A stretch of DNA of 32,000 nucleotides from Propionibacteriaceae bacterium (GTDB lineage: Bacteria; Actinomycetota; Actinomycetes; Propionibacteriales; Propionibacteriaceae): assembly GCA_031256725.1 (NCBI GenBank), contig JAIRQE010000016.1, forward strand, positions 1 through 32,000. Direction: 5' to 3'. Below the pieces are notes generated by a model. That model had not been told where the DNA came from. It searched no databases and worked only from the letters and a program-made list of their open reading frames with translations. The position numbers were made by a program, and so were the translations under genes. This document shows positions 2,766 through 26,038 of this stretch, piece after piece (position 1 is the stretch's first letter; each line of letters opens with the position of its first letter).

Positions 2766-2838
2766 GCGGACGTGGCTCAGCTGGTAGAGCATCACCTTGC
2801 CAAGGTGAGGGTCGCGGGTTCGAACCCCGTCGTCCGCT
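2766..2838 (+). tRNA. tRNA-Gly (anticodon GCC)
   Basis: Hand-folded cloverleaf: acceptor GCGGACG/CGTCCGC, D stem GCTC/GAGC, anticodon stem TCACC/GGTGA with loop TTGCCAA, T arm GCGGG-TTCGAAC-CCCGT. No encoded CCA. Confidence 0.93.
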
Positions 2839-2869
2839 CGGAGAGATCCCTGAGGGGATCGCCGTTAGC

Positions 2870-2940
2870 GGTGGAGTGGCCGAGAGGCGAGGCAGCGGCC
2901 TGCAAAGCCGTGTACACGGGTTCAAATCCCGTCTCCACCT
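2870..2940 (+). tRNA. tRNA-Cys (anticodon GCA)
   Basis: Acceptor GGTGGAG/CTCCACC, anticodon stem GCGGC/GCCGT with loop CTGCAAA, T arm ACGGG-TTCAAAT-CCCGT. 71 nt. Confidence 0.9.
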
Positions 2941-2951
2941 CGAAACAGCCC

Positions 2952-3023
2952 GGGCGGCTGGCGCAGCGGTAGCGCGCTTCCCTGACACGGAAGAGGTCAC
3001 TGGTTCGATCCCAGTGTCGCCCA
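2952..3023 (+). tRNA. tRNA-Val (anticodon GAC)
   Basis: Acceptor GGGCGGC/GTCGCCC, anticodon stem CTTCC/GGAAG with loop CTGACAC, T arm CACTGG-TTCGATC-CCAGTG region. 72 nt. Confidence 0.92.
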
Positions 3024-3031
3024 CGATTGAG

Positions 3032-3057
3032 GTGAATGAGTGCTTGCACTCATTCAC
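3032..3057 (+). other. perfect 12-2-12 inverted repeat (GTGAATGAGTGC tt GCACTCATTCAC) in the spacer between the two tRNA-Val genes
   Basis: Read directly from the sequence. No U-tract follows, so it is not a canonical terminator. It may be a processing or structural hairpin. Confidence 0.6.
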
Positions 3058-3068
3058 GAGGCTTGTGA

Positions 3069-3140
3069 GGGCGTATGGCGCAGCGGTAGCGCGCTTCGTT
3101 CACACCGAAGAGGTCACTGGTTCAAACCCAGTTACGCCCA
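3069..3140 (+). tRNA. tRNA-Val (anticodon CAC)
   Basis: Acceptor GGGCGTA/TACGCCC, anticodon stem CTTCG/CGAAG with loop TTCACAC, T arm with TTCAAAC loop. It is a near-duplicate of the Val-GAC gene. Confidence 0.92.
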
Positions 3141-3148
3141 CAAAGCCC

Positions 3149-3179
3149 AAAAGCCGACCACAAGGTCGGCTTTTGGTTT
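3149..3179. terminator. bidirectional intrinsic terminator (AAAAGCCGACC-acaa-GGTCGGCTTTT)
   Basis: An 11-bp stem (7-bp GC-rich core GCCGACC) is flanked by an A-run upstream and a T-run downstream, so it reads as hairpin plus U-tract on both strands. It lies between the end of the tRNA cluster (+) and the end of metB (-). Confidence 0.7.
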
Positions 3180-3284
3180 CTGTACGAAGACGACTCCCCA
3201 CAAAGCCTAAAAGCTGGCTGCTTGGACGAGCACCGATCAGATACATCAAAGATCATAGTGATATATAAATGTAATGTACCAACT

Positions 3285-4469
3285 TTATCTGTACGCCTTC
3301 TCTACTGCTTGGATGATGTCGGCAATGAGATCCTCGGGATCTTCTAGGCCGATAGCTAGGCGTACAAGCTTGTCAGGGGCAGGATTAGTCGTGGAAGCCA
3401 TGGAGGCGTGGGTCATCGCGTAGGGGTACTCAATCAGTGACTCTGCGGCGCCGAGGGATGCTGCCAGTCTCAAGAGTTGGGTGCTTTCGGAGACCTTGCG
3501 GGCGAGTTCGGGGGAGTCCAACTCGAAGGAGATGACCCCACCAAATCCGCTCATCTGTCGGGCGGCAATGTCGTGCCCGGGGTGGGTGGGCAAACCTGGG
3601 TACCAAACCTGTGAGATCTGCGGTACCTCGGTGAGGGCTTCGGCGACTCTCTGGGCGGTAGCTGCGGATCTTTGTACCCGGACAACAAGGGTACGAAGGC
3701 CCCGATGAGCCAGCCAAGAATCGAAGGCTCCTGGTACTGAGCCAATTGCGTTCTGCCACCAACGGACCTCGTGGAGGACATCATCAGAGCCACTGAGGCC
3801 ATCATCGGGAAGGTGGAGGTCTGGTGCGAAGATGGCAGCACCTCCAACGTGATCAGAGTGGCCACCGATGTACTTTGTCGTCGAATGGATGACAATATCA
3901 GCACCCAATTCGATGGGCCGTTGGAAGACGGGGGTTGCGAAGGTGTTGTCAACGACAACCCATGCTCCGTACTCGTGGGCGACTGTGGAGAGGGCCTCGA
4001 TATCTGATAATTCTAGGAGGGGGTTGGAGGGGGTTTCGAGCCAGAGGACGCGAGCGTGGGTCTCCTCGAAGGCGGTGCGTACCTCATCCAAGTTCGCCAT
4101 GGAAACCCGATGGGTAGACCTACCTTCTCTCGGCAAAATCCAAGTAAACATCCGCCCTGTACCAGCGTACACATCATGCCCGCAAAGAATCGTGTCCCCA
4201 GGGCGGGTGAGGACGCGCACTAGGGTGTCCTCGGCATTTAGCCCTGAGGGAAAGGCGACGGCTCCAGCCCCAGATTCGAGGCTAGCTAAGGCTTCCTGGT
4301 AGCGGTCCCTCGTCGGATTTCCTGAGCGGGAGTAGTTGTACCGATCTGGTGCTCCTTCAATACCGTCGAGTTGAAAGGTTGATGCAAGAACAATGGGTGG
4401 TACAACGGCCCCGGTGAGGGGATCACTGGCTTGGCCGACTTGCACGGCTCGTGTCGAAAATCCTGGCAT
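3285..4469 (-). CDS. metB: PLP-dependent cystathionine gamma-synthase / gamma-lyase family enzyme (Cys/Met metabolism)
   Basis: 394-aa ORF with the Cys/Met-metabolism PLP family pattern, including the PLP-lysine block HSTTKYIGGHSD. Sequence alone cannot separate gamma-synthase from gamma-lyase activity. Confidence 0.88.
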   Translation of the reverse strand: MPGFSTRAVQVGQASDPLTGAVVPPIVLASTFQLDGIEGAPDRYNYSRSGNPTRDRYQEALASLESGAGAVAFPSGLNAEDTLVRVLTRPGDTILCGHDVYAGTGRMFTWILPREGRSTHRVSMANLDEVRTAFEETHARVLWLETPSNPLLELSDIEALSTVAHEYGAWVVVDNTFATPVFQRPIELGADIVIHSTTKYIGGHSDHVGGAAIFAPDLHLPDDGLSGSDDVLHEVRWWQNAIGSVPGAFDSWLAHRGLRTLVVRVQRSAATAQRVAEALTEVPQISQVWYPGLPTHPGHDIAARQMSGFGGVISFELDSPELARKVSESTQLLRLAASLGAAESLIEYPYAMTHASMASTTNPAPDKLVRLAIGLEDPEDLIADIIQAVEKAYR

Positions 4470-4532
4470 GAATCTCTTTCGTGTTCGGTGGGCGCACAGA
4501 TACGCCTAAAAGGTGTGGGGAGGGGTGTACAC

Positions 4533-4578
4533 GCGCAGGCCAGCAGATGGCAGAGATGCTTTGGTTAGCGGCCCGCGC
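4533..4578 (-). promoter_or_regulatory. RNA stem (4570-4578 pairs with 4533-4541; 9 bp including one G-U) whose 5' arm is the last four codons of the minus-strand mini-ORF
   Basis: Minus-strand GCGCGGGCC ... GGCCTGCGC, with a nested AGCA/TGCT helix in the 28-nt loop. It sits in the metB leader and is followed by the C-rich, G-free tract ACACCCCTCCCCACACC (plus coordinates 4512-4528). Confidence 0.4.
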
Positions 4579-4639
4579 ACAGCATTCGACCACAGCACAT
4601 GGCGGAACACATCGCCATTGGGATCTGGGTCGTACACAT
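4565..4639 (-). CDS. candidate Cys/Met-rich leader peptide MCTTQIPMAMCSAMCCGRMLCAGR upstream of metB
   Basis: 24 codons plus TAA, containing 5 Cys and 5 Met. In-frame alternative ATGs occur at 4618, 4612 and 4600. There is no SD, but a TANNNT hexamer (TAGCTT, plus coordinates 4647-4652) ends 7 nt before the ATG, which fits a leaderless start. The stop lies 95 nt upstream of the metB ATG. Confidence 0.45.
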   Translation of the reverse strand: MCTTQIPMAMCSAMCCGRMLCAGR

Positions 4640-4679
4640 GGGAAAGAAGCTACAGTTCCTTACCTAAGAAACCTAATTA

Positions 4680-4696
4680 GTCTCAATAATTGAGAC
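4680..4696. promoter_or_regulatory. 17-bp perfect palindrome GTCTCAAT-A-ATTGAGAC, candidate shared operator
   Basis: Read directly. It is centred in the AT-rich core between the two divergent mini-ORFs and sits just upstream of a possible plus-strand promoter (TAGACT 4700-4705, 18-nt spacer, TAATGT 4724-4729). Confidence 0.4.
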
Positions 4697-4778
4697 AAAT
4701 AGACTTTTTTGGTGAACTATGAGTAATGTAATGCCCCAGCTGGGAAAGCCAGTTGTTTCGCAATAGCTAGGAGGAGTC

Positions 4779-4826
4779 ATGGCCACAACCATGGTGAACA
4801 CCTTCTGCTGTTGTATGTGTATGTGA
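4779..4826 (+). CDS. candidate Cys/Met-rich leader peptide MATTMVNTFCCCMCM
   Basis: 15 codons plus TGA, preceded by AGGAGGAG (4769-4776). The last six codons are C C C M C M. It lies 145 nt upstream of the first gene of the methyltransferase/ABC operon. Confidence 0.6.
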   Translation: MATTMVNTFCCCMCM

Positions 4827-4900
4827 CGCGCTAGCTATTCAGAGCTAGGGGATGGTCCGATTCTGGGCTGTCTTGGTGAATGAGCCCGCGTCATTTTCTG
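4823..4900 (+). terminator. candidate attenuator: alternative pairings ending in a T-rich tract
   Basis: TGACGCG (4824-4830, containing the mini-ORF stop codon) is complementary to CGCGTCA (4887-4893). The same 3' segment can instead form the local hairpin AATGA-gcccgcg-TCATT (4879-4895). Both are followed by TTTTCTGTTG. A nested hairpin CTAGCT-attcag-AGCTAG sits at 4831-4848. Confidence 0.4.
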
Positions 4901-4971
4901 TTGTCATCCAACACATCCTCCCCGTTATTCTCGGGGAAAATATCACAATCATACAACAATAGGAGTTTATT

Positions 4972-5994
4972 ATGTCCACACGTCTGGAAACCTTCCAGAA
5001 CATCATCAACGGCCAAGGCGAAGGGTACCTCACCGCTGCCTGGAAGCATTTCGTTGGCGAGGAGTACGACCGTGCCCGCTTCGTCAAAGCACATGTCGAC
5101 TTCGTCCAGCAATGGGATTGGGACTGGGTCAAGATCAACCCACGAGCCAATTATTATGCAGAAACATGGGGTGCAAGTTACGACCCCACCAACTATGACA
5201 TCATGGTCCCAACCCTCGTTGAGGCTGCGATCACGAAGCCAAGCGATCTGTCCAAGATCGTCCCACTCAAGGCTCAGGACAACCCGATTCTTCGTGAAGA
5301 AATCGCCAGAGCCCGAGAAATCAAGCAGGCTTTCCCCGATCGTGCAGTGATCCAATCGGTCTTCTCGCCACTGGGTGTACTGCTCTTCTTGGCAGACATC
5401 CATCCCTTCCCGCCAGGTCCAGGTAGGGAAGCCAACGGCCCAGTCTCACTGACAGACCTGTTGGACACTGATCGAGCATTGACCCTCAAGGCTCTCGAAG
5501 CCATCACCGAGACCCTCAAGGACTATGTCATCGAACTATTGAAGCCAGTCGAAGAAGGTGGAGCCGGTCTCGACGGGATCTTCTATGCCGTCCTCGGATT
5601 ACCGTCAAAGAGCTTCATCCCCAAGGACAAGTTCGACCAGTTGTCCACCCCATTCGACTTGGGTGTCCTTGAAGCCGCCAAGGGTTCAGCTGTGGTCTTC
5701 CACACATGTTCAATGGACTCTCATCCTGATTGGTTCACTCAGTGGCCATTGAGTGCATTGCAATGGGATCAATTCCTTGACGGAAACCCCGATATTACAA
5801 CCGATCTGGGTGTGATCCCGGTGGGTGGACCCGAGGCTCGCCTGTTTGAAGAAGGGCAAGACCTTGACCTTCTCCAAGAGCAGTTGGCCCGTACCCTCGA
5901 ACAGCGTCAGGGCAAGCCGTTCCTGCTCGCTTCAAGCTGCTCTTTGCCGCTGCATACATCCGATGAAGCCCTCGAGATCCTCAGCAAAGCCTGA
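4972..5994 (+). CDS. uroporphyrinogen-decarboxylase-fold (MtaA/MtbA/CmuA-like) putative zinc-dependent thiol methyltransferase
   Basis: 340-aa ORF with AGGAG 6-7 nt upstream. The overall length and pattern fit the URO-D family. It carries His244-x-Cys246-x76-Cys323 (FHTCS ... ASSCSLP), the H-x-C-xn-C zinc-thiolate signature of corrinoid:thiol methyltransferases and MetE-like enzymes. Confidence 0.55.
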   Translation: MSTRLETFQNIINGQGEGYLTAAWKHFVGEEYDRARFVKAHVDFVQQWDWDWVKINPRANYYAETWGASYDPTNYDIMVPTLVEAAITKPSDLSKIVPLKAQDNPILREEIARAREIKQAFPDRAVIQSVFSPLGVLLFLADIHPFPPGPGREANGPVSLTDLLDTDRALTLKALEAITETLKDYVIELLKPVEEGGAGLDGIFYAVLGLPSKSFIPKDKFDQLSTPFDLGVLEAAKGSAVVFHTCSMDSHPDWFTQWPLSALQWDQFLDGNPDITTDLGVIPVGGPEARLFEEGQDLDLLQEQLARTLEQRQGKPFLLASSCSLPLHTSDEALEILSKA

Positions 5995-6014
5995 AACACA
6001 GAAAAGAGAAGAAA

Positions 6015-7166
6015 ATGAAAAAGAAAACACTCGCATCCCTTGTTATAGGTTTGGCCTTTGCTCTGAGCGCCTGCGCAGGACAGGGCGATCAGACGCAGAC
6101 AACTGACCAGGCCCAAGACTCTCCAGTGACCTTTGGGGTGATCTATCCTAAGACTGGTTCCTATGCAGAATATGGCCGTCTGTTCGAACAGGGTCTAGAA
6201 CTCGCAGTGGAGAAGGTGAACACTGATGGTGGAATCCATGGTCGCGACCTGAAACTGAAGTACTTTGATACTCAGTCCGATCCGAAGCAAGCAGCAGCGG
6301 TCGCGCCCAAACTCGTTGTTGATCCAGAGATTATCGTCGTCCTTGGTGACTATTCTTCTTCCTCATCGAAGGCGGCCTCACCAGCATTCCAGCAGGCGGG
6401 TTTGGTTCACTACGGATTCAACAACTCGGCCACAGACTTCCCGTCAACTGGTGACCATGTGTGGTCCCCGAGTTTTGGTACAGACTCCCTGATGCCAGTA
6501 TGGGCAGACGCTATCGCTGATACTGGCGCGAAGACAGTTTCGGTGATCTATATCGAAAATGACTGGGGTTTGCAGGCCTACGATTATTTCGCAGACCACA
6601 TCAAGACTCTTGGAGTCGAGATCGTCTACACCTCAGCCTACCCTGCGACACCAACTGATGATTATTCACCCATCCTCATCAAGGCTCGCGATGCCAAGGC
6701 GGATGCGATCGTACAGATTGGTTATGCCGAAGGTGCTCAGATTGTCAACACCCTTCGTGACACTCTCGGCTATAAAGGTCCCTTCTATGGTGGTCAGAGG
6801 ACTCCAGAGTTCTTGGATATCGCAGGCAAGAATGCTGAAGGATCGATCCTGAATGGACACTTCTCGAACGAAACAACTGTGCCTAGGGTTCAGGAGTTCT
6901 TGGCTGACTTCCGTGCAGCTTATGGAGTGGATCCGGGTGACTTCAATCTTTCTGCTTACCAGGCGGTGATTGACCTTGCCTATGGGATCAATAAGACTTC
7001 TCCCACTCGTGAGGGAGTGCAAGAAGCCCTACAAACAGTGACCGATTTTCCTGCCTATATTGGTCAGGCCGACACCTTCGCTTTCGATCAGGAAACCCGT
7101 CGACTCCTTGATCCGAAGCCCGGGCTTGTCATCGTTGAAGATGGCGAATTCAAACCATACAACTGA
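6015..7166 (+). CDS. ABC transporter substrate-binding lipoprotein, LivK/branched-chain-amino-acid (Peripla_BP_6) family
   Basis: 383 aa. The signal peptide has the lipobox LSAC (MKKKTLASLVIGLAFALSAC). The type I periplasmic-binding-protein pattern is present (FGVIYPKTGSYAEYG..., GDYSSSSS). Confidence 0.85.
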   Translation: MKKKTLASLVIGLAFALSACAGQGDQTQTTDQAQDSPVTFGVIYPKTGSYAEYGRLFEQGLELAVEKVNTDGGIHGRDLKLKYFDTQSDPKQAAAVAPKLVVDPEIIVVLGDYSSSSSKAASPAFQQAGLVHYGFNNSATDFPSTGDHVWSPSFGTDSLMPVWADAIADTGAKTVSVIYIENDWGLQAYDYFADHIKTLGVEIVYTSAYPATPTDDYSPILIKARDAKADAIVQIGYAEGAQIVNTLRDTLGYKGPFYGGQRTPEFLDIAGKNAEGSILNGHFSNETTVPRVQEFLADFRAAYGVDPGDFNLSAYQAVIDLAYGINKTSPTREGVQEALQTVTDFPAYIGQADTFAFDQETRRLLDPKPGLVIVEDGEFKPYN

Positions 7167-7268: not shown

Positions 7269-9125
7269 ATGATTGACACACTTATTGCCGGACTCCTTCA
7301 CGGAAACATCTACGCTCTCATCGCCGTGGGGATGTCCCTGATTTTCGGCGTGACACACGTCGCCAACTTTGCTCATGGGTCCATCTTCGCCATTGGTACC
7401 ATGCTGGGTTGGTTCCTGGGAGCCCAATTGGGATGGGGGATCATCCCAACTCTTGCAGCTGTCATCGTCATCACATCACTGCTTGGCTGGATCATTTCTG
7501 TACTCGTCGTAGGCCCCCTCGCACAGGGTCCACCGATCGCTGCCCTTCTAGCCACGATAGCTGTGGCGATGATCCTCGACGCACTCTCCCAGGTGATTTT
7601 CACTCCCGTGACACGCAAATTCCCCGAATTGCTTCCCACTCACAATCTTCAACTCGGTGGAGTCCACTTTGGTACTTCCTCTGTCGTCATGCTCATCGTC
7701 ACAATAGTCTCCATGGCTGCCCTGTGGGCCTTCCTTCGTTTCGGGAAGCTAGGTCAGGCTATTCGTGCAACGGCCCAAGACTCGGATTCGGCCAAGCAGG
7801 TCGGGATTCCGGTCGAAAGGATTCGCCACCTCTCCTTCATCATCGCTTCCGGCCTTGGGGGTATGGCTGGGATCTTCATGGGATTGTTCAACTCAACGAT
7901 CAATCCTTCCACTGGTGCCATCGCTGGCCTGACCGCATTCGTGGCAGCAACAATTGGTGGATTGGGATCCATGCCCGGTGCTGTCCTTGGTGGGCTCCTT
8001 CTTGGAGTAACGGAAGCCTTTGGTGTGTACTTCCTAGGCGGCTCCTATCGTGACATCATCATCTTTGGTGCTCTGGTTCTCATCCTCCTTCTGCGTCCAG
8101 CCGGGTTGGTTGGCAAGAAACTGGCAATTGAAACAGAGCCTATGACTCGTACCTTCCTTGGAGGTACACGCCCAATCCAGTTGCCATGGTTCGGCAACCT
8201 GGCTCTCATCGCTGGCCTAGCATTCATCCCGATCCTCTTTGGCCCTCAAATGGGCTCAGTTATCGCTGGTGTTGGTACCCAGGTTTTCGCGTACGCCATC
8301 GCAGCAATCGGGTTAACCATCATTGCTGGAGGTACAGGCCAGATTATTCTCGGCCAAGCTGGTGCAGTGGCTATGGGCGCCTATGGTTCAGCACTCCTAT
8401 CGGTTCACTATGGGTGGCCCTTCCTTGTCACCATCATTGCTGGGGCACTGATCGCTGCTGTGATCTGTTCGATTTTGATCTTCCCAGCATGGAAACTTTC
8501 AGGTCATTACGTGGCTATTGCCACGATTGGTGTGGGTTTCATCACAGTGGCCTTACTCAAGGTTTTAGAGCCCATCACCCGTGGTGTCAACGGAGTCTAT
8601 GGGATTCCTTATCCGGCAATCTTCGGTCTGCAGATCACCGATATTCGGGGGATCTACTGGGTGAATCTGGTTCTGATGGGGATTACCCTATTGCTCGTCA
8701 CAAAGATCATGGCCTCCCATCTCGGGAAGACTATTTCATCGATTGGTGCCGATCCGGTTGCGGCTGCATCCTTGGGTATCCGTGTCACTGGGTACAAGGG
8801 GTTGGCTTATGCCATCTCCGCATTCTTTGCAGGTCTTGCGGGGGCTCTGCTAGCCCATCAGTACACCTACATTGAGCCAGGTCAGTTCGATTTGAATATG
8901 TCAACAGTACTTCTGGCGATCATCGTGTTGGGTGGATTGCGTTCACCATTGGGTGCTGTCCTGGGGGCGATCATACTTCTGGGGGTACCAGAATTACTGA
9001 GAACCATCTTTGAAGACATCACCTGGTTTGTCTCCATCTTCCCCCATGCGCGCATCATCGTCTATGGACTGACCCTTATCCTCATCATCCGCTTCCGCCC
9101 GCAGGGCCTCTTCCAAAGGAGCTAG
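7269..9125 (+). CDS. fused LivH-LivM type ABC permease (branched-chain amino acid transporter family)
   Basis: 618-aa polytopic membrane ORF. The first ~290 aa are LivH-like and the remainder is LivM-like, in a single continuous frame. Confidence 0.85.
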   Translation: MIDTLIAGLLHGNIYALIAVGMSLIFGVTHVANFAHGSIFAIGTMLGWFLGAQLGWGIIPTLAAVIVITSLLGWIISVLVVGPLAQGPPIAALLATIAVAMILDALSQVIFTPVTRKFPELLPTHNLQLGGVHFGTSSVVMLIVTIVSMAALWAFLRFGKLGQAIRATAQDSDSAKQVGIPVERIRHLSFIIASGLGGMAGIFMGLFNSTINPSTGAIAGLTAFVAATIGGLGSMPGAVLGGLLLGVTEAFGVYFLGGSYRDIIIFGALVLILLLRPAGLVGKKLAIETEPMTRTFLGGTRPIQLPWFGNLALIAGLAFIPILFGPQMGSVIAGVGTQVFAYAIAAIGLTIIAGGTGQIILGQAGAVAMGAYGSALLSVHYGWPFLVTIIAGALIAAVICSILIFPAWKLSGHYVAIATIGVGFITVALLKVLEPITRGVNGVYGIPYPAIFGLQITDIRGIYWVNLVLMGITLLLVTKIMASHLGKTISSIGADPVAAASLGIRVTGYKGLAYAISAFFAGLAGALLAHQYTYIEPGQFDLNMSTVLLAIIVLGGLRSPLGAVLGAIILLGVPELLRTIFEDITWFVSIFPHARIIVYGLTLILIIRFRPQGLFQRS

Positions 9126-9127
9126 TC

Positions 9128-10744
9128 ATGACCATGAACCAATACGAAGTATCTGCTCTGACAGTCACCCAACTCAGCAAGAGTTTCGGGTCCCTGAAAG
9201 CTGTTGACGACGTTTCTTTTGTGATCCAACCCGGTGAGGTGGTCTCCATCATCGGTCCTAATGGATCAGGGAAAACCACTCTCATCAACCTCATCTCAGG
9301 GCTTCTGCAACCCGATTCGGGAGCCATTGTCTTTGCAGGTCAGGATCTCACACGAGCCAATCAGGTGGGTGTGTGTGAAGCGGGCATAGGTCGTACCTTC
9401 CAAAATGGACGAGTCTTTGCAAGCATGACTGTCGATGACAACGTCGAACTTGGGCTACACAGCAAGCTGACAGCGAACCGTCCGGGTAAAAGGTTCTCCA
9501 GATTCCCTGTAGGTAACTGGGTCAACCTTCTCGCCGAGGCGGCTGTGTCCTTGATTCCCTCACCTCAAGCGAAGAAGGAGTTGGCCAAAGCTCAGGGCAA
9601 GATTGACGAGCAAATTGCCCGATTCAAGACTCGTCTCGAACCTCGACGCAACCACCTTGCGTATACACTCTCCTATGCGAACAGGCGACGTACGGAAATT
9701 GCGCGAGCCCTCGTCGCCCAGCCCAAGCTTCTCCTTCTTGATGAGCCCACCGCTGGGATGAATCAGGCCGAAACCAAGGAGGTGTTACGCCAGCTTCTCG
9801 AACTGAAGCAAGAAGGACAGTCCATGCTCCTGGTTGAGCATAAGATCGATTTGGTGTTGACCCTCTCCGATCGGGTGATCGTCATGGACTCTGGCAAGAA
9901 GATCGCTGAAGGCAAGCCCGATAGCTTGCATGAAAATCCGGTCGTCATGGAAGCCTACCTGGGTACGCGCCGTGAGGCGATCACTGTACGACCACCGCGT
10001 CCCGCTAGTGATGAACCGCTCCTTGAACTGGACAATGTCAACATCTTTTATGGGCTAGTACAAGCCCTCACCGATGTGTCGCTTACAGTAGGCAAGGGAG
10101 AAATTGTCTCCCTTCTTGGAGGAAATGCTTCAGGAAAGTCGACAACCATGAAGACAATTCTTGGTTTGCTTGAGCCCAAGACTGGCACAGTCACATTCCA
10201 GGGGAATAATCTCACGACCGCGAGTACAGCCGCCCGGGTTCGAGCGGGGATGGCATCTGTACCCGAGGCTCGACGGATCTTCCCAGAGATGACTGTTTAC
10301 GAGAACCTCATGTCGGGGGCCTATACCCGCATGGATCGACAAGGTATTCGTGAGGATCTCGACAGGGTCTTCGAGTATTTCCCCCGCCTGTGGGAGAGGA
10401 AAAACCAGGATGCTGGAACCCTCTCAGGAGGGGAACAGCAGATGCTGGCCTTTGGTCGAGCCCTGATGACGAACCCCGTACTCATCTGCATGGATGAACC
10501 CACAATGGGTTTGGCCCCCAAACTCGTCGAACAGGTACTAGAGCAGATAGCCCACCTGAGAAATGAACTTGGTGTCTCAGTTCTCATGGTTGAGCAACAA
10601 GCAGAGTTGGCGCTGTCCATCGCCGACCGTGGCTATGTTCTCAACCAAGGGGAGATCACCCTTCAAGGATCTGCCCAGACACTCCTGGATGATCCCGGAC
10701 TTAAGGAGGCTTACTTTGGTCGCCAACCCGAGTACAACATCTAG
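9128..10744 (+). CDS. fused LivG-LivF type ABC ATPase (two nucleotide-binding domains)
   Basis: 538 aa. NBD1 has Walker A GPNGSGKTT, signature LSYANRRR and Walker B LLLLDEP. NBD2 has GGNASGKST, LSGGEQQML and LICMDEP. Confidence 0.9.
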   Translation: MTMNQYEVSALTVTQLSKSFGSLKAVDDVSFVIQPGEVVSIIGPNGSGKTTLINLISGLLQPDSGAIVFAGQDLTRANQVGVCEAGIGRTFQNGRVFASMTVDDNVELGLHSKLTANRPGKRFSRFPVGNWVNLLAEAAVSLIPSPQAKKELAKAQGKIDEQIARFKTRLEPRRNHLAYTLSYANRRRTEIARALVAQPKLLLLDEPTAGMNQAETKEVLRQLLELKQEGQSMLLVEHKIDLVLTLSDRVIVMDSGKKIAEGKPDSLHENPVVMEAYLGTRREAITVRPPRPASDEPLLELDNVNIFYGLVQALTDVSLTVGKGEIVSLLGGNASGKSTTMKTILGLLEPKTGTVTFQGNNLTTASTAARVRAGMASVPEARRIFPEMTVYENLMSGAYTRMDRQGIREDLDRVFEYFPRLWERKNQDAGTLSGGEQQMLAFGRALMTNPVLICMDEPTMGLAPKLVEQVLEQIAHLRNELGVSVLMVEQQAELALSIADRGYVLNQGEITLQGSAQTLLDDPGLKEAYFGRQPEYNI

Positions 10745-10990: not shown

Positions 10991-11266
10991 ATGGAGACTG
11001 GTGATTTGGTTGCAGTGTGGGCCACTGAGACTGGTGTGCCCCAGAAGTTTGAGTGGCGTGGACACTCTTATGTGGTCTGTGGTCATCCTGTGCCATGGGT
11101 GGATCGCCTGCCGTGGTGGAGCCTTGGACAGGAGGGACCGCTGAATGCATTGGAGCAGCAGATGTGGAGGGTCTCGGGGGTGAATCCCGATACTGGTCAT
11201 GTCACCTGTGTGGATTTGGCTGTGGAAGAGCCCTCATGGTGGCGGCTGGCGAGTATTCACGAGTGA
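10991..11266 (+). CDS. small Trp-rich hypothetical protein, SOS-box controlled and coupled to dnaE2
   Basis: 91-aa ORF with GAGG 5 nt upstream of the ATG. Its TGA stop is separated by 1 nt from the dnaE2 ATG. Nine Trp in 91 residues. I recognise no family with confidence. Confidence 0.6.
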   Translation: METGDLVAVWATETGVPQKFEWRGHSYVVCGHPVPWVDRLPWWSLGQEGPLNALEQQMWRVSGVNPDTGHVTCVDLAVEEPSWWRLASIHE

Positions 11267-11267
11267 C

Positions 11268-14200
11268 ATGTCGACAGGGTTTGTGCATTTGCATGTGGCG
11301 AGTTGTTTCTCGACACATTTTGGTACTGCGTGGCCTGAGGATTTTGTCCTGGCTCAGAGCTTATCCCCGGCGGCAGCATTAACGGATCGCGATGGATTTT
11401 ATGGGGTGGTTCGCCATGTACGAACCTGTCTTGAAGTGGGGATCTCGCCCATCGTGGGGGTAGACCTATGCGTGGGTTCTCATGATCGTGTGAGGCTGGA
11501 CAGTACCCGTGGAACCCGTGCTCATAACACCTATGACGGTGGAATAGTTGGTGGCCAGATTACGGTCCTGGCCCATGGGCATGATCATGGTGTGGGGTGG
11601 GCGAGTGTTTCTCGTCTTATTTCTGCTGCCCATCATGATGGGGTCAAGAATGGGCCAGGGACGATTAACCGAGCGGCGATGGTTACCCCGGATCGAATCC
11701 CATCCCTTCTTTGTGGGGATGATGGACCCTGTGCGACCATTCTTCTTGGTCCGGAGTCTGATCTAGGACAGGCCGTCTTGGCTTCAGATGTACCACGGGC
11801 GAAAACCCTTCTCAGGGCTTGGAAATCCGCATTTCCGAATATCGTGATCGAGATCTCAAGTCATTACACGCAACCAGGGATGAGTGGGTCGATACCCCAT
11901 GCGGCCGGGATGTTTGAGATGGCTTTAGCGAGTGGTACTCCGTTTGTACTCACGAATGCTGTGCGCTATCTCCACCGCGATGATGCGATCACTGGGGATC
12001 TTCTCGATTCAGCTGGACGCCTGCAACCAATGGGGAGTTTTGATCCGCAGCCGAATGCCCAAGCCTGGCTCAAGGATGCGAAATCTATGCGACAGGTGGC
12101 TGAGGATGTGGCCAGATATGCCGGGGAGCCTGGGTTGGCGACGAGGCTTTATGAATCACCACTGCCCTTGGTGGAGCGCTGTGTTGTGGATCCGCATGAG
12201 GATTTGGGGTGGCAGCGAGCCAAGGTGCCAGAACTGGAGGTGATAGGCCTGTCAGGGGACCCTCAAAAGATCTTGGATGAGCGATGTCGAGGAGGGTTGG
12301 TACATCGGTGGCCACGTCCTAATCAGGATCTTCTGAATCAGATCACAGATCGGTTAAACACTGAACTTCGGATCATCGAGTCCTTCGGTTTCGCAACCTA
12401 TTTTCTCATGGTGGCAGATGTCGTTGATCTGATTAAAGGTCTCAAAATTAGGGTACAAGCGCGCGGTTCGGGAGCAGGGTCGCTGGTCAATTATTGCTTG
12501 GGAGTCTCGAACGTGGATCCGGTGGAGAATGATCTACTTTTCGAGCGTTTCCTTGGGCTCAAGAGGGAGACCTTGCCCGACATCGACATTGATGTGGAAT
12601 CTGCCAGGCGCCACGACGTGTACTACGCAGTCACGCGTAGGTATGGGTCCCATCGGGTGGCTCTGCTGTCGATGCAAAACCAGTACAAGACTCGTGGTGC
12701 TCTCAGGGATACTGGCCTGGCTCTGGGGTTGCCGAACGAGAAGATTGACCGTACCGCCAAATCCTTATGGAGACTCAATGTATCCGAGATATCTGAGGCA
12801 CTGAAATCTCGACCCGAGTTGGCGGAACTCGCCCGTGAAGTCGACGCTGATCCACGATTGCGGGTACTTCTCAACCAGAGTAAGCGGCTGTATCGCTTGC
12901 CGCGCTATATTGCTATGCACCCGTGTGGGGTGATCCTTTCAGACCAGCATCTGCTCAGTCTGACGCCGACCCAGCCTTCTGGGCTGGGGATTCCAATGAG
13001 CCAATTTGATAAGGATGATATTGACGACATGGGATTACTAAAGCTAGATATTTTGGGGGTACGGATGCAATCCACGATTGCCTACACCCTCGACGAGATT
13101 GAACGCCGTCACGGGGACAGGGTTGATGTGGAGACCATCGCCTTCGATGATGAACCCACTTTCGACCAGATTCGTAGTACCCACAACCTGGGGGTGTTTC
13201 AGATCGAATCCCGTGGTCAGCGTGAACTTGTCGGCACAATGCAGCCGGATTCTTTCGCTGATCTGGTGGCTGACATCTCGCTGTATCGCCCAGGGCCGAT
13301 GAAAAGCAATATGATTACTCCCTTTGTGGAGGCGAAACTGGGATTTCGTTCACCCCAATGCCTGCATCCGCGTTTTCGTCAGACTCTGGGGGACTCCTAT
13401 GGTGTGGTGATCTATCACGAACATGTGATTCGGATCCTCGCTGACTGTATGGGGATCACCTTGGGGGAAGCTGATGGGGTGCGCCGACGACTGGGGAAGC
13501 ACCACGACGATGTTGAAGTGGAGTTCCGGACTCGAGCTGCGCAACGCAGTGATGAGCATGGGCGGCGACTGTTCACTGATGCCTATATTGATCGAATCTG
13601 GGAAACCATGAAGAGTTTTGGTAGCTTCGGATTCTGTAAGGCTCATGCAGCGGCTGTTGCGGTGACCACCTATCAGTCGGCCTGGTTGAAGACCCATTAT
13701 CCGGTCGAGTTCATGGCTGGGATCATGGAACATGGTCCAGGGATGTACCCCAAGAGACTCCTACTCACCGAAGCTAAACGCATGGGGATTCCCATCTACG
13801 GGATCGACGTGAACACCTCGACTGACCATTATCGGGTTGACGAGGGGGCCCAGGGTGCGGGGATTCGGATGCCCTTCATCGAGATCAAAGGGATCTCTGG
13901 GACAGAGGTACGTCGCTTGATCGAGGGGCAACCCTATTCCTCTGTTCTTGATGTGATCCAACGTGGAAGGGTTTCGCGTGTCACGATGCAGCGGTTGGCT
14001 GGGATTGGTGGCCTCGATTCTGTGTCACGCGGCTCCTCTAGGGGTACAATCCTCGCGCAGGTACGCCATCTCACAGCTCGACCAATCGCGACACCCTGTG
14101 AAGATCAGGAGGCACTCGTGGATGAGGATGGGGTCTCAACTATCGTCTTTCCTGAGGTACCCGACGTGGATCCCCTTTCTGCAGAACTCGACATTCTCGG

Positions 14201-14579
14201 TATTGATGTCAGTGGCCATGCCCTTGATCCGTGGAGGGGACTCTTGGATGAGATTGGTGTCACCCCTGTTGATCAGCTCTTGAATCTGCGCAACAACTCT
14301 CGAGTAGTTGTCGCTGGAATCCGAGTTTCCGCCATGACCTCACCCAGCAAATCCAAGAAGCGTGTGGTCTTCATCTCCCTCGACGATGGTACAGGTGTGG
14401 CTGACTGTGCTTTCTTTGATGATGCTCAACATCGTGTTGGTCCCGACCTGTTTCGTACCCGGTTGCTCGCCGTCAAAGGGATCACCAGACGTACAGGGGC
14501 TAAGGGGATCAGCATCAATGCTACTGAAGCCTGGGATTTCACCCGTGCGGTGTCACAAGATACATCTCATGATATCTGA
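11268..14579 (+). CDS. dnaE2: error-prone DNA polymerase III alpha-type subunit DnaE2
   Basis: The ~1103-aa product starts MSTGFVHLHVASCFS (PHP domain) and has pol III alpha core blocks. Its size is typical of DnaE2, and a LexA box lies upstream. The ORF-track start at 11199 overlaps the small ORF and is rejected. Confidence 0.88.
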   Translation: MSTGFVHLHVASCFSTHFGTAWPEDFVLAQSLSPAAALTDRDGFYGVVRHVRTCLEVGISPIVGVDLCVGSHDRVRLDSTRGTRAHNTYDGGIVGGQITVLAHGHDHGVGWASVSRLISAAHHDGVKNGPGTINRAAMVTPDRIPSLLCGDDGPCATILLGPESDLGQAVLASDVPRAKTLLRAWKSAFPNIVIEISSHYTQPGMSGSIPHAAGMFEMALASGTPFVLTNAVRYLHRDDAITGDLLDSAGRLQPMGSFDPQPNAQAWLKDAKSMRQVAEDVARYAGEPGLATRLYESPLPLVERCVVDPHEDLGWQRAKVPELEVIGLSGDPQKILDERCRGGLVHRWPRPNQDLLNQITDRLNTELRIIESFGFATYFLMVADVVDLIKGLKIRVQARGSGAGSLVNYCLGVSNVDPVENDLLFERFLGLKRETLPDIDIDVESARRHDVYYAVTRRYGSHRVALLSMQNQYKTRGALRDTGLALGLPNEKIDRTAKSLWRLNVSEISEALKSRPELAELAREVDADPRLRVLLNQSKRLYRLPRYIAMHPCGVILSDQHLLSLTPTQPSGLGIPMSQFDKDDIDDMGLLKLDILGVRMQSTIAYTLDEIERRHGDRVDVETIAFDDEPTFDQIRSTHNLGVFQIESRGQRELVGTMQPDSFADLVADISLYRPGPMKSNMITPFVEAKLGFRSPQCLHPRFRQTLGDSYGVVIYHEHVIRILADCMGITLGEADGVRRRLGKHHDDVEVEFRTRAAQRSDEHGRRLFTDAYIDRIWETMKSFGSFGFCKAHAAAVAVTTYQSAWLKTHYPVEFMAGIMEHGPGMYPKRLLLTEAKRMGIPIYGIDVNTSTDHYRVDEGAQGAGIRMPFIEIKGISGTEVRRLIEGQPYSSVLDVIQRGRVSRVTMQRLAGIGGLDSVSRGSSRGTILAQVRHLTARPIATPCEDQEALVDEDGVSTIVFPEVPDVDPLSAELDILGIDVSGHALDPWRGLLDEIGVTPVDQLLNLRNNSRVVVAGIRVSAMTSPSKSKKRVVFISLDDGTGVADCAFFDDAQHRVGPDLFRTRLLAVKGITRRTGAKGISINATEAWDFTRAVSQDTSHDI

Positions 14580-23452: not shown

Positions 23453-26038
23453 TCATAATCTGGGATCCACTGGTTCGCTTTCTAGGGCTAGGACACCGAA
23501 GATGCATTCGTGTACTCGATGAAGGGGGTCGCCGTTGACGAAACGATCCAGGGATTCCATGCCGAGTGCGAACTCTTGAAGTGCAAGTCGACGCTTTGTG
23601 GACAGGGAGCGTTTCTTCAAGCGGGGGAGGTTTTCCTTGAGAAGGTACTCTGGGCCGTAGATAATGCGCAGGTATTCCCGGCCTCGGCATTTAACTGCGG
23701 GCTGGATGGGTGCTGAATCGCCATGACCAATAAAGTCGAGGGGTTTGACCACCATCCCCTCACCACCGGAAGCAGTGAGATCCTGCCACCACTGGATTGC
23801 GGTCATCGTACTCTTCTCATCTGAAAGGTCCACAAGAAGGTGGTCAGTCGCCATGAAGATGGGGTCGATGCCAGTCATGTGTTTGGCAATGGTTTCCATG
23901 TGCCACAGATGGTTTCGATCCGAGTACACATGCCCCTCGGTTGCAAGAATATGGAAGGGAGCGATGCGATAATCCTCGATGCTTGTGACCTCCCAGCAGT
24001 ACCTCCGATAGGCTTCAGCATAGTGGTCTAGGGCCTCGGCGCGAGCCTGATACCTCTCGGCTAGAGCCGCAAGATCAAGGGTCTTCTTTTCTTGGTTTGG
24101 CCGTGCCAACGTGTCGTCCAGACAAGCGGATTCAAGCTTGTCCGTGAGTACAGCACAAGCACTTGTGATCGCAGCAACCCCAGCAGCTAAACCTACACTC
24201 CCAGCGCGACTCACGGGAGCGAATTGTTCGCGGAGAAGACCCTGAGCCTTGGCTGACCAGGGCATGAGTTCTGCATCCAAACAAACCCAATCTGTGGAGT
24301 ACTCATCCCAGAATCCTGTTCTGGTGAGGACATCATCAAGGCTTGTCAACAGGGTTGTCTCAGTATCATCCTCAAAGAAACGCCGACCTGTGCGTGTGTA
24401 GATGATTCCACGGGTACCATCAGCAATCCTGAATCGACGTTGAGCCACACTCTCATCTCGACACAGGATGATCACAGCACGTGACCCCATGTGTTTGCGC
24501 TCACAAACAACCTGGGTCACACCACGCTTGCGGTAGTACTCGAAGGCTTGCGAGGGATCTTCCAAATAATCATCAAGGGTACTCGTCTCGCAGGGGGACA
24601 TCGTTGGTGGCAGATAGATCAACCATCTGGGATCTGCAGCAAAACGACTCATAACCTCAAGGGCAGCAGCTGAGTTCTCTGCGTTGATCTTGATGGATTT
24701 GCGTAGGGTCGTTGACAGGAATCTCTGCCCCAAAACATCATCCACATTCAATAGATCCCCGCTGGTCGTGGGTGGATGCAGTGGTTTGATGAGTGTGTAA
24801 TACTCCCGAGCCGCCTCAATCTGTACGACTTCTTTTTCAGGGTAACGAAACCCTGTCAGCTTTCCACCAAAGACGCAACCGGTATCAATGCAGACAGTAT
24901 TGTTGATCATTTCGATCTCGGGGGTGGGCACATGCCCATAGACGACGAGGGCTGAACCACGGTAATCATTCGCCCAAGGCAGACGTACAGGCAGGCCATA
25001 CTCATCAGTCTCACCAGTGGTGTCTCCGTACAAACAGAAACTGCGAACTCGCCCAGAACTGCGCCCGTGGTACTTCTCAATCAGCCCAGCATGGGCGACA
25101 ACCAACCTGCCACCGTCGAAGACGTAATGACTGATCAAACCATCCAGGAAACTCTCGACCTCTGTACGAAATTGGCTGGTTTCCGCATCCAACTGAGCCA
25201 TGGTGATGTCGATCCCATGGGTCATGTTTGTGAGTCCGCGACGCAAGATCCGAACGAGTTTCGCATCATGATTGCCAGCCACACAGTACGCTGCACCCGA
25301 GTTGACCATGGACATCACAAGACGCAGGACATCGGTGTTCTTGGGACCGCGATCACAGAGGTCACCAACGAAGATCGCTCGCCGCCCCGATGGGGGAGTA
25401 GCCTGATGATTCTCCTTGTCAACCGCATATCCCATGGTGTCCAAGAGTGAGCACAACTCATCGTAGCAACCGTGTACGTCTCCGATGATGTCGAAGGGTC
25501 CAGTCTCATCTTTCTTGTCATTCCACAGCCGAGTACGATGGATCTCCACGTGAGCGATCTCATCCTCACTGTTCAGAACATGAACATAGCGAAACCCCTC
25601 CTTCTTCAAGGTTTTGAGGGTATGACGCAACTGCTCCATCTGACGGTGGATCACCTTCGCAGGGAAACTCCGATCGCTACGCTGGGCATGGCGCTCCACG
25701 CAGGTGGCTTCCGGCAGGTTGAGTACGATGGCGACCGCGTGAACATTCTGCTCCTTGGCGAGATTGAGCACAGCTGCCCGAGCATCCTTGTGGATATTTG
25801 TGGCATCGATCACAGTCAACAGCCCCAGATCCAGTCGCTTATTGGCGACGTAATACAGGGTGTCGAAGGCTTGGCGGGTCACCTTCTCGTTGTTCTCATC
25901 ATCAGAAACCATGGCTCTAAAGAAATCCGAAGAGAGGATTTCAGTTGGTTTGAAGTGGCGCTGAGCGAAGGTAGATTTCCCCGAGGATGACACTCCAACC
26001 ACGGCAACGACTGCGAGTTCAGGAATCTCTATGCGCAT
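23453..26038 (-). CDS. pnkp: polynucleotide kinase-phosphatase with ligase-like domain (bacterial RNA repair Pnkp)
   Basis: 861 aa in three modules. The N-terminal kinase has P-loop GVSSSGKST. The metallophosphatase has GDVHGC, GDLCDRGP and GNHD. The C-terminal nucleotidyltransferase has the ERKHMGSRAV lysine motif. GGAGG lies 4 nt before the ATG. The start overlaps the hen1 stop by 10 nt. Confidence 0.92.
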   Translation of the reverse strand: MRIEIPELAVVAVVGVSSSGKSTFAQRHFKPTEILSSDFFRAMVSDDENNEKVTRQAFDTLYYVANKRLDLGLLTVIDATNIHKDARAAVLNLAKEQNVHAVAIVLNLPEATCVERHAQRSDRSFPAKVIHRQMEQLRHTLKTLKKEGFRYVHVLNSEDEIAHVEIHRTRLWNDKKDETGPFDIIGDVHGCYDELCSLLDTMGYAVDKENHQATPPSGRRAIFVGDLCDRGPKNTDVLRLVMSMVNSGAAYCVAGNHDAKLVRILRRGLTNMTHGIDITMAQLDAETSQFRTEVESFLDGLISHYVFDGGRLVVAHAGLIEKYHGRSSGRVRSFCLYGDTTGETDEYGLPVRLPWANDYRGSALVVYGHVPTPEIEMINNTVCIDTGCVFGGKLTGFRYPEKEVVQIEAAREYYTLIKPLHPPTTSGDLLNVDDVLGQRFLSTTLRKSIKINAENSAAALEVMSRFAADPRWLIYLPPTMSPCETSTLDDYLEDPSQAFEYYRKRGVTQVVCERKHMGSRAVIILCRDESVAQRRFRIADGTRGIIYTRTGRRFFEDDTETTLLTSLDDVLTRTGFWDEYSTDWVCLDAELMPWSAKAQGLLREQFAPVSRAGSVGLAAGVAAITSACAVLTDKLESACLDDTLARPNQEKKTLDLAALAERYQARAEALDHYAEAYRRYCWEVTSIEDYRIAPFHILATEGHVYSDRNHLWHMETIAKHMTGIDPIFMATDHLLVDLSDEKSTMTAIQWWQDLTASGGEGMVVKPLDFIGHGDSAPIQPAVKCRGREYLRIIYGPEYLLKENLPRLKKRSLSTKRRLALQEFALGMESLDRFVNGDPLHRVHECIFGVLALESEPVDPRL

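Follow-up and report, generated by a model that had tools for sequence, protein, structure and literature searches.

The window analysed here, positions 1 to 32,000 (forward strand, 32,000 nucleotides (nt)) of contig JAIRQE010000016.1 in the assembly GCA_031256725.1 of a Propionibacteriaceae bacterium, carries an uncharacterised plus-strand operon of four genes that is preceded by a 15-codon short open reading frame (sORF) rich in cysteine codons. Comparison with the leaders of orthologous operons makes it highly probable that this sORF is a conserved regulatory leader ORF acting through its Cys codons. As to its output, we favour a cysteinyl-tRNA-sensing attenuator in which the ribosome occludes a junction-type terminator, a reading to which we give an even chance of being right. 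The components that matter for both statements are the following:

4769-4776, plus strand: Shine-Dalgarno (SD) sequence of the sORF, AGGAGGAG; the same place holds GAAGGAGG or GGAGGA in all six leaders compared
4779 (ATG) to 4824-4826 (TGA), plus strand: leader sORF of 15 codons and UGA, peptide MATTMVNTFCCCMCM; read from the sequence, with orthologues in loci L065-L069
4806-4814 and 4818-4820, plus strand: regulatory Cys codons TGC TGT TGT and TGT, with a Met codon (4815-4817) between them; from the six-leader comparison
4823-4894, plus strand: four-way junction with no unpaired junction bases
4823-4830/4887-4894, plus strand: P1, the closing helix of the junction (GACGCG/CGCGTC, 6-8 base pairs (bp), G+C-rich), which holds the UGA stop
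4831-4836/4843-4848, 4849-4859/4864-4874 and 4875-4877/4884-4886, plus strand: helices P2, P3 and P4
4895-4903, plus strand: U-rich tract UUUCUGUUG, directly 3′ of P1
4895-4949, plus strand: G-poor, C-over-G (rut-like) spacer with a local hairpin at 4917-4933

Cysteine accounts for four of the last six codons of the sORF, with CCCMC at codons 10-14 and hence at least two consecutive cysteines near the C-terminus, and its stop lies 146 nt upstream of the first gene of the operon. Among the sORFs of at most 60 codons on both strands of the window, this is the only one with at least four Cys in six codons (mean of 0.09 in shuffled windows). A looser test (at least four Cys, Cys plus Met at least 35%) picks out two sORFs that lie in the same intergenic region on opposite strands, and none of 200 shuffles gave two. 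The comparison set comprised 64 first-gene orthologue loci from reference genomes together with the closest metagenomic relatives recovered by an exact-protein look-up. Within it, the window and five distinct relatives (L065-L069, first-gene proteins 55-72% identical) form a group of leaders that we term type A. The initial annotation had read this sORF, whose coordinates together with those of its SD and stop segment are all correct, as a stalling leader peptide that senses the supply of Cys-tRNA and/or Met-tRNA. The relatives bear out the first part, since all five carry an orthologous sORF with its Cys codons kept (MAHTVTRTSWRCLCLCL, MNHTMMPTSCCCICL, MAQSMTTTSYCCICL, MTTVMTTTSYCCMCS and MMNLMTPTSCCCMCL) behind GAAGGAGG-like sites. 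Joint sensing of methionine does not stand, as the two Met positions of the window drift (M/I/L and M/L/S) while the Cys at codon -2 is invariant, its codon being TGT in each of the six. Further upstream in the ORF, at -6 to -4, five leaders, including the window, read (C/Y)CC and L065 reads CLC, so that the ORFs end in (C/Y)CCxCx versus CxCxCx; the codons at -6 to -4 switch synonymously between TGC and TGT, with TAC also occurring at -6. Across 68 orthologous genes, an upstream sORF with at least four Cys in six codons occurs in the sense orientation in 10 and in the antisense orientation in none.

More distant orthologues from Propionibacteriales and Alloscardovia have other Cys-rich leader ORFs. 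In the high-G+C Propionibacteriales these constitute a 33-codon "...RCCPCQRCMSSVN" ORF family (type B). The last codons and the UGA of these ORFs (GAGCGYGAAC-UGA) have their pairing partner, GUUCGCGCUC, some 100 nt downstream; beyond it come a C-rich tail and then another 250-300 nt of leader. RNAalifold on the type B leaders returns this long-range closing helix along with a probably spurious pairing of a CCAUGG palindrome. The conserved 33-codon ORF of L002, L004, L005, L007, L012, L017, L018 and L057, MSRSxSG.SHRxMRA...RCCPCQRCMSSVN, lies about 350-450 nt upstream of the gene. The Alloscardovia leader ORFs end in "...MCCRMCCCMCR", "...RCCMCCCLAR" and "...SCLCCCMSR". The last of these patterns is seen in Alloscardovia criceti (L019, 3690-3760), where the end of the ORF (...LRSCLCCCMSR) forms part of the 5′ arm of a hairpin of 13 bp with UUUUUU directly behind it, a canonical hairpin with U6 at the place corresponding to the junction and a textbook terminator overlapping the stop codon. 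In L009 and L010, the Cys codons look by eye to be complementary to a segment past the stop (9 bp in L009), and the minimum free energy (MFE) folds do not contain that helix. L073 and L076 have apparently leaderless Cys-rich ORFs, with a TANNNT 6-7 nt before the start. The ORFs of L073/L074 and L076 (VSETMIMQTTRPTGAGCSCCLASRCLRCC and VSTTMNAQSMPLTGVGRSCCLCSCCCQWR) lie about 290 nt upstream of the gene, and TACACT or TAACAT precedes their GTG start by 6 nt. The L076 leader has a branched domain closed by a long-range helix, whose 5′ strand consists of the first Cys codons. Peptide length and N-terminal sequence are wholly different between the leader types, and Cys-richness alone recurs.

The second conserved element is the four-way junction, which begins within the end of the sORF. 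Single-sequence folds give the same junction in all six type A leaders, with energies of -32 to -39 kcal/mol and z-scores of -3.4 to -5.2, and all six share the invariant GTGACGCGCTAGC with the stop codon. Compensatory changes are found in P2 (UA to CG) and P3 (GC to AU, twice), and the inner pairs of P4 are varied. We used the single-sequence folds and a model-based alignment, the latter leaning towards the model, as MAFFT misaligned P3 and P4 in two sequences. In the model-based alignment, 95.7% of the cells are paired and eight pairs are changed on both sides, which none of 500 shuffles matched, and slid registers are only 38-44% paired. A covariance model built from four leaders recovers the other two at E values of about 1e-12; it found no further copy of the junction in 608 kb of related loci, its sole extra match having an E value of 0.15 and lying on the wrong strand. 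Likewise, a scan of JGI metagenomes for the exact pattern GTGACGCGCTAGC..TAGGRRATG returned one contig, identical to L068, and no new copy. The initial annotation had already pointed to the complementarity of TGACGCG (4824-4830) and CGCGTCA (4887-4893). These are exact reverse complements and correspond to P1 in the six leaders. As a 7-nt inverted repeat alone the pair is unremarkable, six such pairs being present in 506 nt; it is conserved across the six leaders and closes a structure backed by covariation. Of what had been anticipated from an alignment of orthologous leaders, then, the conservation of the Cys codons is borne out, P1 is invariant in sequence and shows no compensatory changes, and the second proposed pairing, AATGA with TCATT, is not conserved.

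Immediately 3′ of P1, the 12 nt following CGYGTC contain 6-9 T and 9-11 pyrimidines in all six leaders (T makes up 17-24% of the loci), and the only clear canonical terminator in the window, at 3147-3176 after a tRNA cluster, has a similar tail, TTTCTGTACG. Thus, a G+C-rich helix abuts a U-rich tract in every type A leader, as in an intrinsic terminator, but this helix closes a four-way junction. The spacer that follows is 9-21% G versus 26-29% in the loci and is poorly conserved in sequence.

To relate these elements to translation, we let a model ribosome mask positions -12 to +13 relative to the first base in the P site. The probability of P1 is then 0.91-0.98 for five of the leaders, whether the RNA is free or codon -6, -5 or -4 is in the A site; the sixth, L065, gives 0.49 when free, 0.38 at codon -6 and 0.95-0.96 at -5 and -4. 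In all six it falls to 0.02 or below when codon -2 or the stop occupies the A site. No conserved antiterminator or other alternative pairing was found in the six leaders; when P1 is masked, a weak local hairpin appears only in the window and its closest relative, L065. One candidate antiterminator, AATAGCTAG (4762-4770) with CTAGCTATT (4831-4839), forms a perfect 9 bp in the window. We rejected it as inspection of the five relatives shows no counterpart and P1 is kept in the stalled-ribosome modelling. The layout recurs in the type B leaders, where a long-range closing helix takes up the last codons and the stop in its 5′ strand, and in the Alloscardovia criceti hairpin. Since P1 is lost with the ribosome near the ORF end and the same layout is seen elsewhere, we prefer a reading in which the ribosome itself serves as the antiterminator. 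The initial annotation had envisaged a terminator/antiterminator switch set by ribosome position. A switch set in this way is indeed the most sensible reading. The roles that it gave to the two hairpins are probably reversed, because the TGACGCG/CGCGTCA helix directly abuts the U-rich tract and closes the conserved junction, and no conserved antiterminator is present.

From the conserved ORF and Cys codons, the paired junction, the UGA within P1, and the U tract with its spacer, we infer the following mechanism. The sORF would report the supply of cysteinyl-tRNA via how far its translating ribosome has moved. When Cys-tRNA is plentiful, translation of the 15 codons would be complete and the ribosome gone before the polymerase makes the 3′ strand of P1, allowing the junction to close. 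Closed P1 with the U tract would then end transcription, or the naked G-poor spacer would be left for Rho, and expression of the operon would be low. With scarce Cys-tRNA, the ribosome would be delayed on the four Cys codons; once the invariant UGU (codon -2) or the stop is in the A site, it would cover the 5′ strand of P1 and block the closing helix, and the polymerase would read through into the genes downstream. No antiterminator hairpin would be needed, the ribosome itself taking that role. In the Escherichia coli pyrBI and pyrE leaders, the translating ribosome likewise blocks the terminator hairpin in the absence of an antiterminator RNA, with UTP being sensed via polymerase speed; unlike in those systems, the variable here would be the speed of the ribosome at the Cys codons. 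In the window alone, a second layer is likely, whereby a ribosome stalled on any of the Cys codons would also unmask the SD of the first gene, as in the mycobacterial leader Ms5788A.

Several points weigh against ribosomal occlusion of the junction as the principal output. P1 survives when the ribosome is stalled on one of the first three Cys codons; therefore, the model predicts termination under severe starvation unless the polymerase is slow or paused, and it would need a kinetic match between the delay of the ribosome and the transit of the polymerase through the 70-nt junction. The invariance of P1 means that there is no covariation support for this helix itself. The four-way junction is no standard intrinsic terminator: a simple terminator scan is silent on it and two relatives have only 6-7 U in their 12-nt tail. 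Further, the C-rich tail of the type B leaders fits Rho better than intrinsic termination. The tie of the operon to cysteine draws only on gene neighbourhood and protein fold. As for the second layer, the pairing it calls for is seen in the window and not in the relatives, as set out next.

The reading that comes closest as an alternative, which we hold to be possible though rather unlikely, is that the sORF senses cysteine with a mainly translational output, as in Ms5788A. In that case, the Cys-codon tract would pair with the SD of the first gene and a stall would free it; the junction would only bring the partners near each other, and any loss of transcript would be a secondary effect of Rho polarity on the untranslated G-poor leader. 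The features concerned are:

4950-4965, plus strand: first-gene SD region, CAUACAACAAUAGGAG; its complement is the Cys-codon tract at 4802-4817
4953-4983, plus strand: nucleotide-conserved initiation block of the first gene, A-AACAATAGGAGTTTAYYATGTCCAC-CGT, near-identical in six leaders

Of the 16 positions of the tract (CUUCUGCUGUUGUAUG), 15 can pair with 4950-4965, G-U pairs allowed and the AGGAG of the first gene included, which gives a duplex of -17.7 kcal/mol, compared with -7.4 +/- 2.4 for shuffled tracts, none of 500 being as good. At some 3′ boundaries of the folded region, the SD is 71-90% paired to the tract. A translational output has direct experimental precedent in Actinobacteria, is in keeping with the G-poor spacer, and has a logic that survives severe starvation, as a stall at any of the four Cys codons covers the tract. 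The SD-proximal block AACAAUAGGAGU is conserved at the nucleotide level, and the near-identity of the whole initiation block in the face of proteins that are only 55-72% identical suggests a constraint beyond coding. However, the ensemble probability of the pairing in the window ranges from 0.00 to 0.90 depending on the 3′ boundary, as the tract has a second partner in the SD region of the sORF itself. In the five relatives, the duplex is no better than shuffles (p 0.09-0.55), the pairing probability is at most 0.15 at every boundary tried, and modelled stalling shifts the accessibility of the SD by no more than about 0.1 either way. Moreover, a translational output leaves unexplained the stop inside P1, the invariant codon -2 and the U tract abutting P1. 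Hence, the pairing of the tract with the SD is likely a lineage-specific reinforcement, even as it provides the main rival for the principal output.

A different alternative keeps the junction and inverts its logic, or hands termination to Rho; we judge it quite unlikely. Here, a fast ribosome reaching UGA-C would block P1 and permit read-through, as in pyrBI/pyrE, and one slowed at the CCC codons would let P1 form and terminate transcription, leaving the operon on at plentiful cysteine, for example to pass sulfur to methionine; or termination on the G-poor spacer would be Rho-dependent. The modelled behaviour of P1, intact with the ribosome at -6 to -4 and abolished at -2 or the stop, accommodates this reading too. 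All six leaders have UGA-C at the stop, which is a slow termination context in E. coli. The divergent neighbour of the operon is a transsulfuration-type enzyme, the spacer has more C than G, the tails of type B leaders are C-rich, and in 2005 a role of Rho was put forward for Cys leaders of actinobacteria (PMC1262725). Against this stand the induction of every tested polycysteine sORF on cysteine limitation, the need for the ribosome to stay at the stop while 70 nt are transcribed, and, for Rho, the poor conservation of the spacer and the lack of evidence for a defined rut site (the loading site of Rho). A related and bolder proposition, also unlikely in our estimate, is that the junction, with its invariant junction-proximal pairs, is a specific recognition site for a protein, tRNA or small molecule that adds a second input to the cysteine read-out, or that an inverted pyrBI-like logic turns the operon on at plentiful cysteine and gates the flow of sulfur towards methionine.

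It is highly improbable that the sORF encodes a Cys-rich micropeptide, either metal-binding or the precursor of a modified peptide, or that the junction is a riboswitch or a protein- or tRNA-binding element independent of sORF translation. The conserved CCCxC pattern, the probable zinc enzyme encoded by the first gene, and the combination of invariant junction-proximal pairs with variable loops, which hints at sequence-specific recognition, could be taken in its favour. But the peptides of the different leader types are unrelated in length and N-terminal sequence, the operon (an MtaA-like enzyme and an importer only) is without a peptide-modifying enzyme, and a different Cys-rich sORF precedes the divergent gene. 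The junction, with variable loops and no unpaired junction bases, offers no conserved pocket-forming nucleotides of the kind found in riboswitches. Rfam searches returned only a tRNA and a chance match to a long non-coding RNA for 3000-7000 of the window at E values up to 10, and nothing for 19 related loci at the gathering score. Least credible of all is the arrangement of the initial annotation, with TGACGCG/CGCGTCA as antiterminator and AATGA-gcccgcg-TCATT plus TTTTCTGTTG (4879-4883, 4891-4895 and 4894-4903, all present) as a terminator formed when a ribosome at the stop masks TGACGCG: it has a trp-attenuator-like logic in which CCC stalls leave P1 free, and the window and L065 do fold GAAUGA/UCAUUU when the 5′ strand of P1 is masked, but this hairpin has an energy of -4.5 kcal/mol (z -0.44, with 58 of 200 shuffles as good) and exists only in those two leaders, the stretch forming P4 in L066, L068 and L069 with AAUGA as its variable loop and only a 4-bp stem in L067, while the supposed antiterminator, being directly followed by a U tract, would act as a terminator.

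Returning to the proposed attenuator in which the ribosome occludes the junction, the 5′ part of the leader transcript has further features, identified by inspection and folding:

4724-4729, plus strand: -10-like hexamer TAATGT, a putative promoter element found by inspection only
4737-4755, plus strand: 5′ hairpin P0 (CAGCUGG/CCAGUUG), from folds, probably at the 5′ end of the transcript
4760-4814, plus strand: hairpin joining the SD/start region of the sORF to its codons 8-12 (anti-SD CCUUCU and the first Cys codons), from MFE folds

In the relatives, TAGAGT or TAGGGT lies about 7 nt before P0, matching the place of TAATGT; a scan with the sigma-70 consensus made no call there. The other five leaders have a hairpin of different sequence at the position of P0. 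Given the SD and the hairpin upstream, the sORF probably starts about 40 nt inside the transcript and would thus not be leaderless. The hairpin at 4760-4814 has an equivalent in L066-L069 (ACGAAG/CUUCGU pairing, with UAC/GUA in L068 versus CAC/GUG in L069) and competes with the long-range pairing of the tract to 4950-4965.

The intergenic region that harbours the leader is 502 nt long (4470-4971) and separates the operon from a divergently transcribed gene for a pyridoxal phosphate (PLP) enzyme. It contains two further features on that side of the leader:

4565-4639, minus strand: second Cys/Met-rich sORF, MCTTQIPMAMCSAMCCGRMLCAGR (five Cys, five Met), about 95 nt upstream of the metB-like PLP-enzyme gene
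4676-4700, between the divergent leaders: near-perfect palindrome ATTAGTCTCAAT.ATTGAGACAAAT

The minus-strand sORF has no SD and has TAGCTT 7 nt before its ATG; like its mycobacterial counterparts, it is apparently leaderless. A segment about 25 nt past the stop pairs with the 3′ end of this sORF, which is partly conserved in L065 (MLTTQMFVAPCSAVSCGR...), where it lies at the contig end. A TCTCAyAT-type motif occurs at the place matching the palindrome in L065-L069, and we regard the palindrome as a candidate operator that may be shared by both directions and bound by a transcription factor.

The genes on either side of the region, with their assignments, are:

3285-4469, minus strand: divergent PLP enzyme of Cys/Met metabolism, cystathionine gamma-synthase/lyase family (metB-like), from family matches
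4972-5994, plus strand: first gene of the operon, URO-D-fold protein, MtaA-like, 340 amino acids (aa), with invariant H244, C246 and C323
6015-10744, plus strand: HAAT (Liv-type) ATP-binding cassette (ABC) importer as a whole, from family matches
6015-7166, plus strand: its substrate-binding protein, Liv/HAAT-type
7269-9125, plus strand: its fused permease
9128-10744, plus strand: its fused ATPase

The order of the operon genes in the relatives is as in the window. The product of the first gene has a weak Pfam match to URO-D, below the cut-off, and neither an NCBIfam match nor a sequence match in the PDB, that is, no characterised homologue in either. Its AlphaFold model (pLDDT, the predicted local distance difference test, of 94.5) finds its best fold match in the PDB in the Methanosarcina mazei methyltransferase 4ay7 (MtaA-type), followed by UroD and MetE. 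H244, C246 and C323 are invariant columns in the alignment of the family and form a His-x-Cys...Cys pattern, which is the zinc site of thiol-alkylating enzymes of this fold and a putative zinc site here. The binding protein of the importer has only generic HAAT-family matches, which point out no ligand. Cys/Met PLP enzymes adjoin the URO-D-like gene in many Bifidobacterium loci as well, and the operon is probably linked to the supply of cysteine or sulfur amino acids; the literature searched contained no paper tying a URO-D-family gene and an ABC transporter to cysteine in Bifidobacterium or Propionibacteria. Specifically, in L037, L046, L041, L063, L015, L055 and L054, all from Bifidobacterium, the URO-D-like gene stands beside one or two such enzymes. 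Most of these loci are without a Cys-rich leader ORF; therefore, regulation there must differ.

Elsewhere in the window, a tRNA cluster, Gly(GCC)-Cys(GCA)-Val(GAC)-Val(CAC), lies at 2766-3176 and ends in the strong canonical terminator mentioned above (3147-3176). The tRNA-Cys gene and the Cys-sensing leaders are only some 1.9 kb apart, probably by coincidence. Directly 3′ of the ABC operon, 11199-14579 codes for a DNA polymerase III alpha-type protein of 1126 aa (PHP, pol3 alpha, finger, HhH and OB domains). A bacterial RNA-repair pair of overlapping genes occupies 23453-27405 on the minus strand; the gene for a Hen1 methyltransferase of 458 aa precedes that for an 861-aa Pnkp, which has kinase, phosphatase and ligase domains.

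Leader peptides with runs of Cys were predicted upstream of cys operons from Mycobacterium and Propionibacterium acnes and of cbs from Bifidobacterium longum, in a study that suggested a role for Rho and detected no terminators (Seliverstov et al. 2005, PMC1262725). Work in mycobacteria subsequently established that polycysteine leaderless sORFs attenuate translation in response to cysteine (Canestrari et al. 2020, bioRxiv 10.1101/834739 / Mol Microbiol 114:93). In M. smegmatis, ribosomes stalled on such sORFs relieve the attenuation, with pairing of tract and SD in Ms5788A, and the regulated genes form a "Cys ribulon" (bioRxiv 10.1101/834739). Classical attenuation by terminator and antiterminator has been shown for the upstream ORF (uORF) of M. 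tuberculosis ilvB1 (PMC13236596). Naville and Gautheret (2010) contains no Cys leader, and we found no description of the present leader in the literature searched. The initial annotation had regarded it as an undescribed case. That needs to be narrowed, in as much as leaders with Cys runs were predicted in 2005 and demonstrated for mycobacteria in 2020; neither set of cases includes this operon, an SD-led form or the junction architecture.

The closest parallel is with Ms5788A and the Cys ribulon: both are actinobacterial short ORFs with a C-terminal Cys cluster before an operon that is sulfur-linked (here probably so), with the stalled ribosome as the proposed sensor, and the Cys tract of the window is complementary to a downstream SD (15 of 16 positions). 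As in the Cys ribulon, where several independent Cys sORFs occur per genome, there are two here, placed divergently in one intergenic region. In contrast to the mycobacterial sORFs, the plus-strand sORF of the window has a strong SD and a start within its transcript. What the leaders conserve here is a four-way junction that takes in the stop codon and precedes a U-rich tract; pairing to the SD is not shared by the relatives. Genes for an MtaA-like enzyme and a HAAT ABC importer do not appear in the mycobacterial list of regulated genes consulted. The leaders predicted in 2005 (PMC1262725) come from the same phylum and partly the same families and share the Cys runs near the stop of a short ORF with a pyrimidine-rich region downstream; however, they precede cys/cbs genes and are without a conserved hairpin or terminator, unlike the covarying structure and U tract found here before another operon. 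With trpL, hisL, leuL and the ilvB1 uORF (PMC13236596), the leader has in common a translated uORF, clustered regulatory codons, and a structure with a U tract before the genes, the position of the ribosome deciding the outcome. It differs from them in that no mutually exclusive antiterminator was found, the candidate terminator is a branched junction of about 70 nt, the stop lies in the closing helix, and only the last regulatory codon is within reach of that helix. Thus, the case belongs with the known actinobacterial polycysteine leader ORFs and differs from them in being SD-led, in the junction that holds the stop, in having no antiterminator and in the operon it precedes.

These observations extend Cys-sensing leader ORFs, shown so far only in mycobacteria, to the Propionibacteriales and some Bifidobacteriaceae, and indicate that a single operon can come with different forms of one principle, be it SD-led, leaderless, with a simple hairpin or with a four-way junction. 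With its closing helix holding the stop codon, the junction would represent a compact design in which the ribosome takes the place of the antiterminator. Finally, the leader provides a first hint of function for an operon that is widespread, though uncharacterised, in Actinobacteria from the gut and the environment and that codes for an MtaA-like putative zinc enzyme and an amino-acid-type ABC importer.

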